Source of the DNA: Phapecoctavirus 536P1
Direction: 5' to 3' (one strand)
DNA: 64,000 bases
Sequence record: OZ035728.1
The notes under the pieces are model-generated. The model had not been told where the DNA came from, searched no databases, and was given only the letters and a program-made list of their open reading frames with translations. The stretch's first letter is position 1; every line of letters begins with the position of its first letter. This document shows positions 33,730 through 40,628 of the stretch, piece by piece. The position numbers and the translations under genes are program-made.

Positions 33730-34520
33730 TCCCGCACCATTACGTGCTGCTGCATGTCACCATGCAGATCAGACTATATCTTCATGCTTAAAGCATGTCT
33801 ACCATTTGGGGTGTCATAGGCTTACACCCTACGCTGCTACATTCATCACAGCTAGTCGTTAGGCATTTCGTAACAGAACTCATAATCATAATTATTTGGT
33901 GCTCCTTGTTTTAAGATTGCAGATATTCTTTTTCTGTCCAACCCTAAAGCGTCAGCACAACATCTCAGACTTTTAAAGTAAAAAACTTCACCAGTAGCCT
34001 TATGAGTAGCTTTTACACTGTGACACCTTGTGTAGAAAGCATAACAGTTATTATCGTAACCCTCTTGCGTGTTGTCTGGACAAGATCCCCACTCAAGATT
34101 GTATACACTGTTGTCTTTCCTATTGTCACCTTTATGCTTCACATAAGGTAAATTGTCTGGATTGGGTAAAAACGCTTCAGCTACAAGTCTGTGCACCCGA
34201 AAGCAAACAGTTTTCTTGTTTTTACGTATTCTGACAAGTTGGTATCCTGTGTTTATTTCTTCCCACGAGCGAAGGATTCTTTCATCCTTATACCTGGTAC
34301 AATAAACATTTCCAAGCTCGTCAATTTCATACCCTTCAAAATCACGAATTTGTTTTCTCATATCAGTACCCCCCTTCTTCTGTGTTGGGAGTTCTGTTAC
34401 GTTTAGCACGGGATTGTCTCTGTTGAGAGTTCCCCCGTTTAGGCAGATTTTACATGAGCAGTTATAGTTTACCCATACTCGTAACAGTGCCATCTGCTGA
34501 TCCCGTAACTTCTTTGTTCA
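33730..34520 (-). mobile_element. insertion splitting nrdD: putative group I intron carrying an HNH homing endonuclease ORF (boundaries approximate)
   Basis: nrdD reading frame broken into 293-aa and 323-aa pieces that together give about 600 aa; about 120 nt of GC-rich, hairpin-rich non-coding sequence lies between HNH stop and downstream nrdD piece. Confidence 0.45.
33852..34361 (-). CDS. HNH homing endonuclease (intron-encoded candidate)
   Basis: start at internal ATG (MRKQIRDFEGYEIDELGNVY); VHRLVAEAF and KHKGDNRKDNSVYNLEWGS HNH-type blocks. Confidence 0.6.
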   Translation of the reverse strand: MRKQIRDFEGYEIDELGNVYCTRYKDERILRSWEEINTGYQLVRIRKNKKTVCFRVHRLVAEAFLPNPDNLPYVKHKGDNRKDNSVYNLEWGSCPDNTQEGYDNNCYAFYTRCHSVKATHKATGEVFYFKSLRCCADALGLDRKRISAILKQGAPNNYDYEFCYEMPND

Positions 34521-35343
34521 AAGGAACAGAAATAAAATCTGGATAAATACGATCAGCACAACATGCCAAAGCTTGTTGCTTAAGGTCATAGTTAGGATCA
34601 CTAGGTTTCATGTTAACACCTTCTTGTAAAAAGAAAATAACTTTAGGGAATACAGGCGTTACATGATCTTTGCCTAGACCGTTACTATGCACTTTAAGAT
34701 AGTTAGCTGTAATCATTCTGCCAAAAACAGAGGTATCCAGACCCATACTGATTGTAATAAAAGGAGATTGTCCATTAACACTCATTAAAGTATTAACCTG
34801 ATACAAGAGAGTTTGCATAGCATCATATACATCTTGTTCGGTCATTTCTAGGGCTTCTTTCCTTGCATAACAACCGTAGCGACGTTTGGTTATCTCCATG
34901 TTTTTAAGGAAACTAGCTTCAACATAAGGACTAAGACCTTTATCAATGTGCGCACACGTCTGACCTCCATACTGACTGGAGGCAACAGCTTGGATAATTT
35001 GAGTTAGCACTGTGGTAGCTACCCCAATAGATTTTGGTTTTTCTATCTGTGCGGCTCCGATCTTAAAACCATTCTCTAACATATCTTGATAATTAACAAG
35101 ACAACAGTTTGTAAGAGGAGAGAGTAGATAATCCAAGTCGTGAATATGTCCAAAACCTTCTGTATGCCATTCTGACAAGTTTTTTGGCAGTATCTGTGTC
35201 ATTGCCATATGTTTGCTTAAAATCCCCGCCAAGAGATCCCTATGCGTGTTAACGAGGTGGGAAGGTTTGTTTGCATTCTCTCTAGTGTATGTTTCTGAAG
35301 TGCGATCTAAAAAAGAAAAAACATCTTGGTACAAATCTTTCAT
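34462..35343 (-). CDS. nrdD: anaerobic ribonucleoside-triphosphate reductase, N-terminal part (upstream exon/fragment; 3' end of ORF runs into insertion)
   Basis: 293-aa ORF upstream of and co-linear with C-terminal nrdD piece; SD AAGGA. Confidence 0.6.
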   Translation of the reverse strand: MKDLYQDVFSFLDRTSETYTRENANKPSHLVNTHRDLLAGILSKHMAMTQILPKNLSEWHTEGFGHIHDLDYLLSPLTNCCLVNYQDMLENGFKIGAAQIEKPKSIGVATTVLTQIIQAVASSQYGGQTCAHIDKGLSPYVEASFLKNMEITKRRYGCYARKEALEMTEQDVYDAMQTLLYQVNTLMSVNGQSPFITISMGLDTSVFGRMITANYLKVHSNGLGKDHVTPVFPKVIFFLQEGVNMKPSDPNYDLKQQALACCADRIYPDFISVPLNKEVTGSADGTVTSMGKL

Positions 35344-35418
35344 TATTAATCCTTATTTTGTGAGTAGAACTATTATTCTACCTCTTCCAACCGAAAAAAG
35401 CTTTGAGGAAAATCAAAA

Positions 35419-35439
35419 AAGGCGCAAAGTGCGCCTTTA
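35419..35439 (-). terminator. intrinsic terminator after the 448-aa gene
   Basis: AAAGGCGCACTTTGCGCCTTT hairpin followed by TTTTTGATTTT on minus strand. Confidence 0.6.
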
Positions 35440-35443
35440 AGTT

Positions 35444-36790
35444 TTATTGTTTGGAGAGGAATTGTCTTCCCATAATCTTACCGTTCTTTACAGCGGTCCC
35501 ATCATGTCCATTATAATCCCAAGTTCCGTCGATATTACGCAAGAAGCTATCACGAACAGTGTAGGCTTTACCGTTCTCTACTTTACTTTCTTCCACAATG
35601 ATCGCCATAACAAGCTTATTTTCAATTTCGGTAGTAACCGATTCTTTGATACCCTCTGTAACTTCACGATCATATTGGATATAAACTCGCTCCTCGGTTA
35701 CTTGCACGTCTACCACATTTTTAAATGTGTAGGTCTGTTGTGTAGTGTAGAGGACACGAACGACACTCTTCTTACCTACTGGCGGCTTCTGACGACGTTT
35801 GCGGTAACGTGGAGATGGGTTAAGTTTAATATAACCTACAATATCTGATCCATCTCCAGAGTGGCTCCAATAAAATGTCTCTGCCAAACCTTTTCCTTGG
35901 TCCCCATTTCGAAAAAGAACATTAACAGGACCATCACAAGGGCGTCTACCTCCGATGTGTGCTTGGTATTTTGCTGTTCTTGGGAGAACAAAATATTCTT
36001 CAATCTGCCATTCACTATCGTATTTCTCCCATTCGAAGTGGTTGGCTTTACATACTTCTAAAACACCATTTTTGTAACGGACTTGAACAAAGTCTTCACA
36101 AGGTTGAATACCTGTATTAGGAATATAGGTAGGCTCTGTGTCTTCTGGTTCAAAAGTCTCTTTTTGTTGTTCCACATCTTCCACTTTTCTTACATGCTTA
36201 GTATAAAACATATCTTTAAACTCCTGCGCTTCAACCTCAACTGCAAATTCATGTTCTCTGACAGCCGGAGGCACAAGGCTTCCACACTCAAGATGCAGCG
36301 CATCCAGACCTGCCATTTTATCGTAAAAGATAACTTTTCGATACTTCTTACCGTCTTCTGGAATAGCAGGGTCTACTCGTTTAAGACGGGAAGCATCGCT
36401 TTTAGTCCAAAAACTCTTCCCTGTTGTATTATTGAAAGTAGTAATCATTTCTTCAATTTCTTCTTCAGAAAGGTTACTAGTGTCTGTGTAAACATCTTCA
36501 ATTTTTAGCATTTTAGTTTTCTTAAGAATTAAATCTAGCATTGCATCTCCTGTAAAACGTAGCTCATTATCTCCTACTGTCGGCTCTCCAGAAAATTCAT
36601 TGGTCCCGACTGTATGACAGATGTATGGAAAATTTGTGCAACCGTGTAAAAGAGCATATTGTCCTGTAAGTTTAGGATCTGTCTCTTTAGTCCAACCATA
36701 TGCAATTTCAATAGCTTTGCAAAGCCTATCGAACAAGCCCCGATTGTTTGCCGCTGTTACCAAATCTTGCTTATGTGTATATACATTCAT
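35444..36790 (-). CDS. hypothetical protein (448 aa)
   Basis: long ORF with SD GAGGAGGG; no motif recognised. Confidence 0.65.
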   Translation of the reverse strand: MNVYTHKQDLVTAANNRGLFDRLCKAIEIAYGWTKETDPKLTGQYALLHGCTNFPYICHTVGTNEFSGEPTVGDNELRFTGDAMLDLILKKTKMLKIEDVYTDTSNLSEEEIEEMITTFNNTTGKSFWTKSDASRLKRVDPAIPEDGKKYRKVIFYDKMAGLDALHLECGSLVPPAVREHEFAVEVEAQEFKDMFYTKHVRKVEDVEQQKETFEPEDTEPTYIPNTGIQPCEDFVQVRYKNGVLEVCKANHFEWEKYDSEWQIEEYFVLPRTAKYQAHIGGRRPCDGPVNVLFRNGDQGKGLAETFYWSHSGDGSDIVGYIKLNPSPRYRKRRQKPPVGKKSVVRVLYTTQQTYTFKNVVDVQVTEERVYIQYDREVTEGIKESVTTEIENKLVMAIIVEESKVENGKAYTVRDSFLRNIDGTWDYNGHDGTAVKNGKIMGRQFLSKQ

Positions 36791-37341
36791 AATAACCCTC
36801 CTCGTTTTATTGCAATAGATGCCCTAGGCTCTGCGATACCAGTGGCGTATAAATACGGATGACCTTGTGGAGAAGTTCTCATCCCAAACGAACCTAATTC
36901 TAACCCATACATATCTTCCACGTCAAGACCAATATCTGTCTCTATGATTTGAGTTTGAACTTTGTAATACGTCCAAAAGAAATAGCGCATAGTTTCGGCA
37001 TATTCTTTGATGGATGCTCCTGGATAAAACTCAATAATTTCCAACTTCAAGAAAATGTTAAAATGAACATCATCTAACTCTTCTTCTGTTCGGTAGCAAG
37101 GTGTTAGAGCCATATAAGGATGATCTGTTGAAAATTCAAACCCGTCTTTCTCCATCTGGAGGAAAGACTGCTCTGCACTGGCTACGTAGAACTTACCATT
37201 AGGATGCCCCAAGGGGCAATCCTCTTTACCTTCTGGTAATGTATATGCAAGGATATCCGCATCTACAAGATAAGGGACTTCCAACATCTCCGCAAATCGC
37301 CCATAGTAATCAATAGCTTGAGCAATAACAGCTACGTTCAT
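36787..37341 (-). CDS. class II aminoacyl-tRNA synthetase-like / AsnA-like catalytic-core protein, tentative
   Basis: 184 aa; YVASAEQSF, ALTPCYRTEEE and GLELGSFGMR resemble class II aaRS motifs; SD GGAGGA. Confidence 0.35.
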   Translation of the reverse strand: MNVAVIAQAIDYYGRFAEMLEVPYLVDADILAYTLPEGKEDCPLGHPNGKFYVASAEQSFLQMEKDGFEFSTDHPYMALTPCYRTEEELDDVHFNIFLKLEIIEFYPGASIKEYAETMRYFFWTYYKVQTQIIETDIGLDVEDMYGLELGSFGMRTSPQGHPYLYATGIAEPRASIAIKRGGLL

Positions 37342-37589
37342 GATCTTCCTCCTGTGCGGAAAGCACGTTTAGTAATGTTGGACATAACGATTAAATCTTG
37401 TAAAGTCATGTCTGGGAACTGTTGTTCTAAAACTCCCTCAACAGCACCTATAATATCTGATAATTCAACAAGTTGCATTATTTTGCAATCCTGTTCAACA
37501 GCATCAAAAAGTTCTTCTACTTCCTCTTTAATCTTTTCTATGCTGCCATAAGGTTGTTTCTTAATGTCTGTTATGTGATACCCTGCCAT
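37338..37589 (-). CDS. MazG-like nucleotide pyrophosphohydrolase, tentative
   Basis: 83 aa all-helical; EEVEELFDAV...ELSD pattern; start abuts helicase stop. Confidence 0.35.
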   Translation of the reverse strand: MAGYHITDIKKQPYGSIEKIKEEVEELFDAVEQDCKIMQLVELSDIIGAVEGVLEQQFPDMTLQDLIVMSNITKRAFRTGGRS

Positions 37590-39182
37590 TTAACGATCCT
37601 CTCTGATTTGATTAATCTTACGAGCAAGGGCAGCTATAAGTTTATCTTCTTCGGATATAGGAGCCGTGCTCTTACCTAAACGATGCATGTCTAGAATCTC
37701 TTGAACAGTCCGGTTCCATTGTAGACATTTAATACAACGTGTATGTGCAACATACAGAAGATTTCGTTCTGATTCTTCAAGACCTACCCACTCACCCTTC
37801 TTATCATAATTAGAAGGAAAGTCATTTGCAACAATAACCTGATCCCACTCCAAACCTTTTGATTTATGGGCCGTAGTTAAAGTAACTTTAGCCGTTGGAG
37901 AGTTACGGTGCATACGTAAAGTGTATGCAATATTATTAGCTTTACCAGAAACAACAATGTTTAAAAGTCGTTTTGCATCAGGATCTGATTCTGCACACTC
38001 TACAAATTCTTCCCAAGAAGTGTAAGGTAGAACTGTCTCATGCTTAACTTTGTCCAAATCACCTCTACGTAAAGCATTAACACTATCAACCATAGAAATG
38101 AAATCTTTGGTATCTACGTTAATAATAATCTCTTCTCCGTTAGCGATTCGGTCCATAGCTTCGAGCAACAGGGTCAAATTCTTACGGAAAATAATGGTGT
38201 AAGGTTTACTATAATCTACCACATCAGAATGAAAACTTCCAGTGACAGTATCATAACCTTTCCCTACCAGCGGATGCTTCAGAGGTGAGCGATCAGAAAG
38301 GATCGCATTAGCAATGTCCGCAACTTTAGGACCAAAGCGAAAACAAGCTGTCAGAGGCAACTCAACCCCATATGTAGCCGTTTGCTTCATCATGTTCTGG
38401 CTTCCACGGAACTGATAAATACTCTGAAACTCATCACCCACAACAACAATACGTTTAGCCGATTTAGCATTGCGAAGGATAGACAGGAATGCAGGGTTAA
38501 CATCCTGGAATTCATCTCCAAAAATAATATCGTATCCTAAATCTTCTTTACTCAATTCAAAGAGTTTCACATAGGTGTCATGAGTCATAATGGTTTCTGA
38601 TTTAGGATCAATACGCTCACGCCAAAGTTGCTTCGCATATTTAACAACTTCGTTAATAAGTTTTTGTTCGTTGATGTTCTTACGTTTAAGATCTGACATA
38701 TGCACTTTAGGAAAATGTTTATGTCCAATATGTTCATCGTCAGAAAACTCGTATTTAGCTAAAGTTTGTTTTACCATTAACCCGATCATTGCACGAGTCA
38801 GTAGCACTTTACCATTCTTATCAATCAAGTTCTGAATCTTGAATTTTTTGGCAATCTCACTACCAGTTCCAGCTACGTTAACATATTGACCTTCTGGACG
38901 AGACAATTTGTGTCGAAGGTTTTGTGGAAGACGCTGGTAACAGATTGAATGTAGCGTTCGGCACATAACATTAGGCGGCATTTTACGTCGAGCTTCCTCT
39001 GCCATACTTTTGTTAAACGCCAAGTATAGAATACTATCATTTGTGCCATTAGCCAACATATACAGTGTTGACGTTTTACCTGATCCAGATTTAGCTTGAA
39101 TTGTAACGAAACGATTTTCTTGATACCCACTTTCAATAGCGTATTGTTCATCGGTAGGTGTAAAACTCAATTGTGTAGACAC
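37590..39182 (-). CDS. UvrD/PcrA-like superfamily 1 DNA helicase
   Basis: 530 aa; Walker A QAKSGSGKTSTL and DExQ-type box IIFGDEFQD; GTG start with SD AGAGGAG. Confidence 0.8.
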   Translation of the reverse strand: MSTQLSFTPTDEQYAIESGYQENRFVTIQAKSGSGKTSTLYMLANGTNDSILYLAFNKSMAEEARRKMPPNVMCRTLHSICYQRLPQNLRHKLSRPEGQYVNVAGTGSEIAKKFKIQNLIDKNGKVLLTRAMIGLMVKQTLAKYEFSDDEHIGHKHFPKVHMSDLKRKNINEQKLINEVVKYAKQLWRERIDPKSETIMTHDTYVKLFELSKEDLGYDIIFGDEFQDVNPAFLSILRNAKSAKRIVVVGDEFQSIYQFRGSQNMMKQTATYGVELPLTACFRFGPKVADIANAILSDRSPLKHPLVGKGYDTVTGSFHSDVVDYSKPYTIIFRKNLTLLLEAMDRIANGEEIIINVDTKDFISMVDSVNALRRGDLDKVKHETVLPYTSWEEFVECAESDPDAKRLLNIVVSGKANNIAYTLRMHRNSPTAKVTLTTAHKSKGLEWDQVIVANDFPSNYDKKGEWVGLEESERNLLYVAHTRCIKCLQWNRTVQEILDMHRLGKSTAPISEEDKLIAALARKINQIREDR

Positions 39183-40085: not shown

Positions 40086-40628
40086 TTATTTTGTGTTGAC
40101 CTTATTTCGCATTAACCTGTGGGATACAGAGTTGCGAGATCTGTTTAGAACCTTACCAATCCCTGCATGACTATACCCTTCACTATTTAACTTTTCAAGA
40201 ATCTGGTCTTCTTCCTCTGTCCAGTAGCGGCGTTTAGCTTGTCTATCATCCACACCATACATGATAGGTTGCTTTACATCCATCACTTTTAGCAATCTGA
40301 CAGCCTCTTCCGCTTTCTCTTTTTTGAAACGGAGATAAGGGATTAAATTCTCAAGCAATCTTATCACACTTTCTCTGCTGCTAACATTGATATTATACAT
40401 CAAATTATCATATTTTTCAGCCCAAGCTACGCGCGATGTGAAAGAGACAGTATATCCATAACTTTCCAACTCTTTAGCCAAATCGGTCATTTCTTCTGCC
40501 GATCTCTCGTGTTGTGTAAGGTTTACTGTGTAGGAGTCTGAAGTCTCCCTGTTTCTGCTTATAATAGACCCATCACAATCTATGCAACCTGCGTAGTAAG
40601 CATAAAACAGTTGTTCTTTTATGTCCAC
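40086..40628 (-). CDS. LAGLIDADG-like domain protein fused to C-terminal helix-turn-helix
   Basis: YYAGCIDCDGSI resembles LAGLIDADG; C-terminal WTEEEDQIL...GKVLNRSRNSV HTH-like; GTG start. Confidence 0.45.
   Translation of the reverse strand: MDIKEQLFYAYYAGCIDCDGSIISRNRETSDSYTVNLTQHERSAEEMTDLAKELESYGYTVSFTSRVAWAEKYDNLMYNINVSSRESVIRLLENLIPYLRFKKEKAEEAVRLLKVMDVKQPIMYGVDDRQAKRRYWTEEEDQILEKLNSEGYSHAGIGKVLNRSRNSVSHRLMRNKVNTK

Follow-up and report, generated by a model that had tools for sequence, protein, structure and literature searches.

A near-obligate phage module pairs a minimal SerRS-like synthetase core with a predicted HisE/MazG-type partner

Introduction

What is the function of an aminoacyl-tRNA synthetase (aaRS) core that has no domain for binding tRNA and sits in a phage genome beside a small MazG-like protein? 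The question is raised by two overlapping genes in a 64,000-nucleotide stretch of Phapecoctavirus 536P1 (record OZ035728.1, referred to here as the window). The DNA is that of a phAPEC8-like Escherichia coli myovirus (Phapecoctavirus, about 150 kb) and is 99.3% identical to vB_EcoM_ESCO37 over the region of the two genes. The original prediction described the larger protein (A, 184 residues) as a class II aaRS- or AsnA-like core lacking an anticodon-binding domain, and held its pairing with the smaller protein (B, 83 residues) to be meaningful, suggestive of nucleotide or metabolite modification, since such stand-alone cores can join amino acids to substrates other than tRNA. Both open reading frames (ORFs) prove to be real, lie on the minus strand, and share an ATGA stop/start overlap. 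We find that A is a seryl-tRNA synthetase (SerRS)-derived class II catalytic core cut down to motifs 1-3, that B is a predicted pyrophosphohydrolase domain of the HisE/MazG type, and that the two constitute one functional unit, a near-obligate module.

Protein A: a SerRS-derived class II core

As a single sequence, A has no match in Pfam, NCBIfam or the PDB, and its homology came to light only through profiles and structure. A profile built from 38 sequences retrieved from the PDB class II synthetases only, with SerRS as the best match (2dq3, E=8.8e-5), accompanied by AspRS, PylRS and AsnRS; HisRS and HisZ were absent from these matches, and no HisRS entry of Pfam or NCBIfam matched A. The structure comparison proposed in the original prediction gave a class II fold for A, an antiparallel beta-sheet flanked by helices in which the complete six-stranded core is retained, and ranked SerRS first, with HisRS and HisZ just below. 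Profile-profile alignment by hhalign with E. coli SerRS (E=2e-6) places A residues 14-108 on SerRS residues 186-298, pairing VPYLV with VPYLV (motif 1), SAEQ with TAEV, TPCYRTE with TPCFRSE, and FLKLE with FDKVE. Motifs 1 and 2 are assigned by this alignment and motif 3 from structure: in the model of A, the strand at residues 162-171 leads into a helix that starts at R173. Local alignment and hhalign choose the same motif 3 register against SerRS GSGLAVGR, neither being significant alone, and the C-terminal half of A searched by itself against the PDB found no aaRS. All 184 residues belong to the core, which starts at motif 1, lacks both the coiled-coil arm and an anticodon-binding domain, and is 6 residues short of E. 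coli SerRS in the motif 2 loop. The stand-alone core of the original prediction is thereby borne out by fold and profile. Some A proteins carry Cys-rich tails, which are zinc-ribbon-like by our reading of the CxxC spacing.

Several more specific identities were considered and rejected. A is not a canonical seryl-tRNA synthetase (EC 6.1.1.11), because the tRNA-binding, N-terminal coiled-coil arm is missing; nor is it a HisRS or HisZ, as its PHROG 4806 label implies, because its sequence affinity lies with SerRS. Of the two likenesses first suggested, that to class II aaRS stands and that to AsnA does not, since SerRS, and not the AspRS/AsnRS type (class IIb), is the closest relative.

Conservation in A was computed over 195 members of the family, whose median identity to the query is 37%. 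Positions S55, E57, R84, F97, K99, E101, D140, E148, S151, T167, P172 and R173 are 98-100% conserved. We take E57 to be the Glu of the SerRS TAE loop, R84 the motif 2 Arg that binds the alpha-phosphate and the carboxylate, F97 the adenine-stacking Phe, E101 the serine-binding Glu, E148 and S151 the Mg/ATP-binding pair, T167 the Thr/Ser that contacts the serine hydroxyl, and R173 the motif 3 Arg that binds the gamma-phosphate. The ELGSFGxR strand presumably corresponds to the E-x-x-S Mg2+/ATP-binding strand of SerRS, as judged from structural superposition, with no significant sequence alignment. We infer these equivalences, whereas the conservation itself is computed. Active-site-type residues conserved to this degree at so low a median identity fit catalysis rather than a pseudoenzyme, and from its sequence A looks catalytically competent.

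These residues also bear on the possibility that A is a non-catalytic regulatory paralogue that tunes a HisE-like B pyrophosphatase according to an amino acid, much as HisZ serves HisG. Conservation reaches 99-100% at the arginines of motifs 2 and 3, at the adenine-stacking Phe and at E148/S151, as expected of an ATP-using catalyst; the profiles of A match SerRS, not HisRS or HisZ; and none of the genes that recur near the module is HisG-like. HisZ, the regulatory subunit of ATP phosphoribosyltransferase, belongs to the HisRS lineage and has no catalytic activity; A is SerRS-like, and its catalytic-type residues are intact. Furthermore, HisZ and HisE are not known to form a physical pair or a fusion, in contrast to A and B, and the phage module has no accompanying HisG-like gene. 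We therefore consider a regulatory role of this kind decidedly unlikely.

Protein B: a HisE/MazG-type domain

The AlphaFold2 (AF2) model of B has a predicted local distance difference test (pLDDT) score of 89 and three helices (residues 17-32, 36-57 and 63-79). Its best Foldseek matches are HisE (2a7w/1yvw) and MazG (3cra/2yxh/1vmg), with probabilities of 0.98 and 0.93 and weak E-values (0.6-5), as expected because the protein has only 83 residues. The B of the window scores 17.0 bits (E=0.0079) against Pfam PRA-PH (PF01503), below the gathering threshold of 21.3 bits, and is best described as a predicted superfamily-level relative of PRA-PH, not a curated family member. Among 54 diverse B domains, 39 match PRA-PH (best E 2.8e-5) and 4 match MazG, and residues Y4, H5, I9, K19, E22, E23, E26, E42 and D45 are invariant. 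The B profile retrieves archaeal MazG 1vmg and HisE 2a7w as its best PDB matches with the EExxE/ExxD motifs in register, and the N-terminal SY...KG...KK of HisE aligns on the GYH..I.KG...SK of B. Both the helical bundle and the EExxE...ExxD metal-binding residues of the all-alpha nucleoside-triphosphate (NTP) pyrophosphohydrolase superfamily are present. Fold, Pfam and PDB profile agree with the small MazG-like protein first proposed, and we read B as a HisE/MazG-type domain, predicted to be an Mg2+-dependent NTP pyrophosphohydrolase. An L10 match of B was spurious, arising from a profile contaminated by the long L003 fusion, and that profile was discarded.

Could B instead be the acceptor of the amino acid? 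The amino acid:[carrier-protein] ligases Bll0957 and Atu2573 are, like A, stand-alone SerRS-like cores, and B would in that case be a carrier of ~80 aa, aminoacylated on a phosphopantetheine arm. These ligases differ from A in size (about 300 aa) and in their descent from methanogen-type SerRS. They work with a carrier protein that bears phosphopantetheine, whereas B has the NTP-pyrophosphatase fold and no invariant serine. Many B domains have Ala or Cys in place of S44, a replacement that an essential phosphopantetheinyl-serine would not allow; the fold matches of B include no carrier protein and point to PRA-PH/MazG instead; and no phosphopantetheinyl transferase recurs nearby. The variable S44 and the missing carrier fold match rule out a carrier identity for B, and a ligase system of this type, contradicted by the data, has practically no probability left.

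B occurs in several architectures. In locus L101, from a metagenome-assembled genome (MAG), two HisE/MazG-like domains stand in tandem within 166 aa upstream of A, consistent with B acting as a dimer, as MazG-type enzymes do. A cupin-like domain of ~200 aa with an HxH...H pattern is fused N-terminally to B in only four loci, all of jumbo phages, and is absent from the other loci. This domain (phrog_4784) has a weak match to a 'cysteine dioxygenase' PHROG; a second search iteration picked up the B moiety and was disregarded. It may contribute a lineage-specific third activity to the module. In Acinetobacter-type loci, B has C-terminal extensions without assigned function.

Pairing, fusions and distribution

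The linkage of the two genes was examined in 80 diverse IMG/VR viral loci, on contigs of up to 578 kb, in which A is 28-82% identical to that of the window. B adjoins A or is fused to it in 78 of them, always on the same strand; of the other two, one has a B remnant and one lacks B. B usually lies upstream with a 4-nt overlap; it follows A in about 12 loci, and in 5 the two are fused. Fusions are known in both orders: ten proteins of 260-274 aa have the order A-B (P0152, P0158, P0162, P0170, P0175, P0185, P0200, P0209, P0215 and P0216) and one has the order B-linker-A (P0212). A 349-kb jumbo phage of Vibrio keeps the pair too, at identities of 54% for B and 45% for A.

An exhaustive profile search, clustered at 50% identity, gave the A family 1,587 clusters, of which 1,021 matched below 1e-30; nearly all members have between 173 and 204 aa. 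The B family is of similar size (1,753 clusters), and both are almost entirely phage-restricted. In GTDB genomes, 13 of 15 A matches have the pair, including three A-B fusions and one tandem B-B; all of these matches come from metagenome bins, bar one on a 775-bp contig. No third partner is conserved, the largest cluster of neighbours other than A and B being present in 9 of the 80 loci, and an R2K ATP-grasp gene occurs near the module in 1 of the 80. PADLOC defence models matched neither A, nor B, nor the fusions.

This distribution bears directly on whether A and B are merely unrelated neighbours, a degenerate aaRS fragment next to an independent house-cleaning MazG. MazG-like genes are indeed common and scattered in large phages (PMC7824862). 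Chance proximity is contradicted, however, by adjacency in 78 of 80 loci although A identity is only 28-82%, by fusions in both orders, and by strong purifying selection on both proteins, so that we assign it a negligible probability. The near-obligate adjacency and the fusions strongly support a meaningful pairing, and A and B are one functional unit.

One further locus, L103 (JGI 3300034072 Ga0310127_000002), carries the module in the order B->A on a metagenomic contig of 1,042,066 bp. The 16 kb that we looked at seem phage-like: most genes there have no annotation, and the others include a 5'-3' exonuclease, a Dam methylase, an R2K ATP-grasp and giant collagen-repeat proteins. Should the contig be viral, its genome would be exceptionally large for a phage.

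Genomic context and proposed mechanism

Neighbouring genes around the 80 loci were identified by Pfam and counted by hidden Markov model. The recurrent ones are RlaP (9 loci), T4-type RNA ligase 1 (Rnl1; 6), the CCA-adding enzyme (5), NMNAT-Nudix (6), Nampt (5), UvdE (5), ribonucleotide reductase (RNR) alpha (5) and ThyA (4); RlaP, Rnl1 or the CCA-adding enzyme is present in 15 of the 80, all of these counts being made without a matched control. RlaP is a nucleotidyltransferase shown experimentally to repair damaged tRNA 3' ends by adding nucleotides (PMC12776372). Genes for tRNA lie within 8 kb of the module in 14 of 50 loci scanned; the module stands within or beside large tRNA arrays in L041, L049, L061 and L065, and directly follows two tRNA-Gln genes in L051. 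Near the module, three loci also have tRNAs with a CUA anticodon, classed by ARAGORN as tRNA-Pyl and of amber-suppressor type, which in those jumbo phages could reflect stop-codon reassignment. In L061, a tmRNA gene beside the tRNA array lies ~1.2 kb upstream of B-A (Table 1).

We tentatively propose, with somewhat less than even confidence, that A and B are two subunits of one phage enzyme that links amino-acid activation to a nucleotide-type acceptor. A would bind ATP together with an amino acid that is small, polar and serine-like, and form an aminoacyl-adenylate. Through its EExxE/ExxD-Mg2+ site, B would bind either a nucleoside triphosphate or a nucleotide or RNA end that bears pyrophosphate, and would either cleave this substrate or position and present it. 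With A activating the amino acid and B handling the triphosphate or pyrophosphate, activation would be coupled to pyrophosphate chemistry on the acceptor. A free nucleotide or a tRNA 3' end would be the preferred acceptor, within a phage toolkit for nucleotide and tRNA maintenance; in any specific acceptor we have much less confidence than in the general mechanism. The proposal draws support from the folds, the conservation of catalytic-type residues in both proteins, the translational coupling of the genes, their near-obligate co-occurrence, and the fusions in both orders.

Other observations weigh against this mechanism. The association with tRNA and RNA repair is moderate and suggestive, and the 64-kb window itself is devoid of genes for tRNA, RlaP, Rnl1, the CCA-adding enzyme or NAD salvage. 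The amino-acid specificity of A is indicated solely by conserved positions that match SerRS. When the C-terminal half of A is aligned locally with SerRS, 234 of 500 shuffles score equally well, and hhalign gives a non-significant E of 0.19 for the same comparison. Finally, the role of B could be structural or regulatory rather than hydrolytic. Compared with the function first suggested, amino-acid ligation onto a non-tRNA substrate or nucleotide or metabolite modification, the genomic context leans at least equally to tRNA and RNA 3'-end biology.

That context, in which the module lies within or beside tRNA arrays in several lineages, raises the alternative that A is a genuine minimal seryl-tRNA synthetase charging host or phage tRNA(Ser) or acceptor stems, with B replacing the tRNA-binding arm or removing pyrophosphate. 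SerRS is the nearest relative of A in both sequence and structure, the catalytic residues are conserved, and engineered class II urzymes of 119-145 aa, derived from HisRS, keep amino-acid activation (PMC3060492). Against charging of tRNA stand the shortened motif 2 loop, which makes the acceptor-end contact, the lack of tRNA genes in the window, and the host's own SerRS. The coiled-coil arm, which in SerRS binds the variable arm of tRNA(Ser), is missing as well, and B is acidic, with an NTP-pyrophosphatase fold rather than an RNA-binding one; net charge is itself uninformative on RNA binding, because SerRS is also acidic. We regard a tRNA-charging role as unlikely.

A bolder form of the two-subunit mechanism would make A-B a heteromeric 'aminoacyl-nucleotide' or tRNA-3'-end enzyme of a previously unrecognised class. 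A would then be a near-urzyme SerRS core that makes the aminoacyl-adenylate, and B would feed or process the triphosphate- or pyrophosphate-bearing acceptor, for example in nucleotide aminoacylation, or in 3'-pyrophosphate removal from toxin-modified tRNA followed by recharging. We put this forward as a doubtful possibility.

Organization of the locus

In the window, the module lies within a co-oriented block of the order helicase-B-A-ORF448, in a neighbourhood of helicase and anaerobic RNR genes (Table 1). The stop codon TAA of the helicase directly abuts the ATG of B, and the order of the genes on the minus strand means that the MazG-like B is transcribed ahead of the aaRS-like A. The 448-aa ORF is labelled 'ribonucleotide reductase' in PHROG 15930 and RefSeq, a label that looks doubtful, and it has no match in Pfam, the PDB or PADLOC. 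It is lineage-specific and was kept out of the A-B module.

Beyond the block, the gene for the anaerobic ribonucleotide reductase, nrdD, is split. Its N-terminal fragment of 293 aa matches PF13597 positions 1-263 of 562, and a 213-aa ORF, by eye HNH-type homing endonuclease-like, overlaps the 3' end of the fragment; in the relative Mt1B1_P17, nrdD is a single intact gene of 1680 nt. Again by eye, a LAGLIDADG-type homing endonuclease may be encoded by a 180-aa ORF that has a CIDCDGSI-type segment and, towards its C-terminus, a helix-turn-helix-like region.

Table 1. Positions of the module, its motifs and associated features in the window and in other loci
Feature	Sequence	Position	Strand	Remarks
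Gene B, 83 aa	window	37338..37589	minus	HisE/MazG-type all-alpha NTP pyrophosphohydrolase-like subunit (predicted); ORF list, AF2, Foldseek, Pfam, PDB profile
B N-terminal GYH motif	window	37575..37583	minus	Y4, H5 invariant; opposite SY(T) segment of HisE
B EExxE motif	window	37512..37526	minus	E22, E23, E26 invariant; first half of all-alpha NTP-PPase Mg2+-binding signature
B ExxD motif	window	37455..37466	minus	E42, D45 invariant; S44 variable (A or C in relatives)
Gene A, 184 aa	window	36787..37341	minus	Minimal SerRS-like class II aaRS core; motifs 1, 2, 3 only
A motif 1 strand VPYLV	window	37264..37278	minus	P23 98%; same as VPYLV of E. coli SerRS (hhalign)
A SAEQSF loop	window	37162..37179	minus	S55, E57 100%; opposite SerRS 'TAE' loop
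A motif 2, TPCYRxE ... FLKLE	window	37039..37110	minus	R84, F97 100%; K99, E101 99%
A ELGSFGxR strand	window	36877..36900	minus	E148 99%, S151 100%, G153 98%
A motif 3, Y-G/A-T-G-L/I-A-E-P-R-x-S	window	36817..36849	minus	T167, P172, R173 99%
B->A coupling	window	37338..37352	minus	Shine-Dalgarno GGAGGA 37347-37352 within B 3' end; ATGA stop/start overlap 37338-37341
A->448-aa ORF coupling	window	36787..36803	minus	GAGGAGGG at 36796-36803; ATGA overlap 36787-36790
UvrD-type helicase	window	37590..39182	minus	First gene of co-oriented block
448-aa ORF	window	35444..36790	minus	Last gene of co-oriented block, downstream of A
Terminator-like site	window	35418..35438	minus	Hairpin + T-run; end of block
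nrdD, split	window	33852..35343	minus
nrdD N-terminal fragment	window	34462..35343
213-aa ORF	window	33852..34493
180-aa ORF	window	40086..40628	minus
CUA-anticodon tRNA	L049	1980-2053
CUA-anticodon tRNA	L052	967-1123
CUA-anticodon tRNA	L054	12950-13024
tmRNA	L061	6111-6503		Tag peptide ANDETFGETALAA
Tandem B-B	L101	339-839
B->A module	L103	7751-8838
Cupin-like-B fusion	L071	7070-8017
Cupin-like-B fusion	L052	6953-7858
Cupin-like-B fusion	L045	7175-8002
Cupin-like-B fusion	L038	8567-9436

Relation to known systems and significance

The closest relatives of A are SerRS by ancestry and, by architecture, the stand-alone class II paralogues: the amino acid:carrier-protein ligases, HisZ, AsnA and EpmA. 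At 184 aa, A is under half the size of SerRS (about 430 aa), its insertions are trimmed, and it is paired with a HisE/MazG-like partner, as SerRS is not known to be. Minimal class II cores that hold motifs 1-2, with or without motif 3, have been described as urzymes and as GlyRS-alpha-derived ORFs (PMC3060492, PMC11602164). Those are engineered excerpts or database ORFs, whereas A is a natural family of ~1,600 clusters under purifying selection and with a dedicated partner. The urzyme papers of the Carter laboratory show interest in minimal class II cores and contain no phage or SerRS example.

A different parallel is offered by MazZ-PurZ of the Z-genome phages, in which a phage MazG-like NTP pyrophosphatase works with an amino-acid-ligating enzyme in nucleotide metabolism. 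The likeness to A-B lies in this combination of activities. PurZ is, however, a homologue of adenylosuccinate synthetase and not aaRS-like, and it is not known to be fused or obligately adjacent to MazZ. Neither PurZ nor DatZ was noted among the ORFs examined.

The aaRS resemblance of A is not new, because it is already in the PHROGs and GenBank labels. In PHROGs, A is phrog_4806, 'histidyl tRNA synthetase'; in GenBank it is a 'putative seryl-tRNA synthetase', a 'histidyl tRNA synthetase' or hypothetical. Hundreds of phage genomes label the gene 'seryl-' or 'histidyl-tRNA synthetase'; among them are 272 records of cultured phages, with therapeutic-candidate phages of E. coli and Acinetobacter, phiCbK-like phages of Caulobacter, and Microcystis phage Ma-LMM01. 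Both labels are unsupported for a 184-aa core without a tRNA-binding domain, and the partner gene B stays annotated 'hypothetical'. We found no description of the A family or of the pairing in the literature searched, the jumbo-phage survey (PMC7824862) included. What appears new is that A has an obligate HisE/MazG-like partner, to which it is at times fused, how large and how phage-restricted the family is, and that its present labels are wrong.

Only about 40-60 residues larger than the engineered urzymes, A is a natural case in which to ask how far a class II synthetase can be reduced and still function. If the heteromeric enzyme outlined above exists, A would be the smallest class II synthetase core that functions in nature, and A-B would serve large phages against attacks by the host on tRNAs or nucleotides. 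The module is often found beside tRNA arrays and genes of tRNA repair and nucleotide metabolism; it probably carries out a step, so far uncharacterised, by which phages control the nucleotide or tRNA pool, and may possibly serve in counter-defence.

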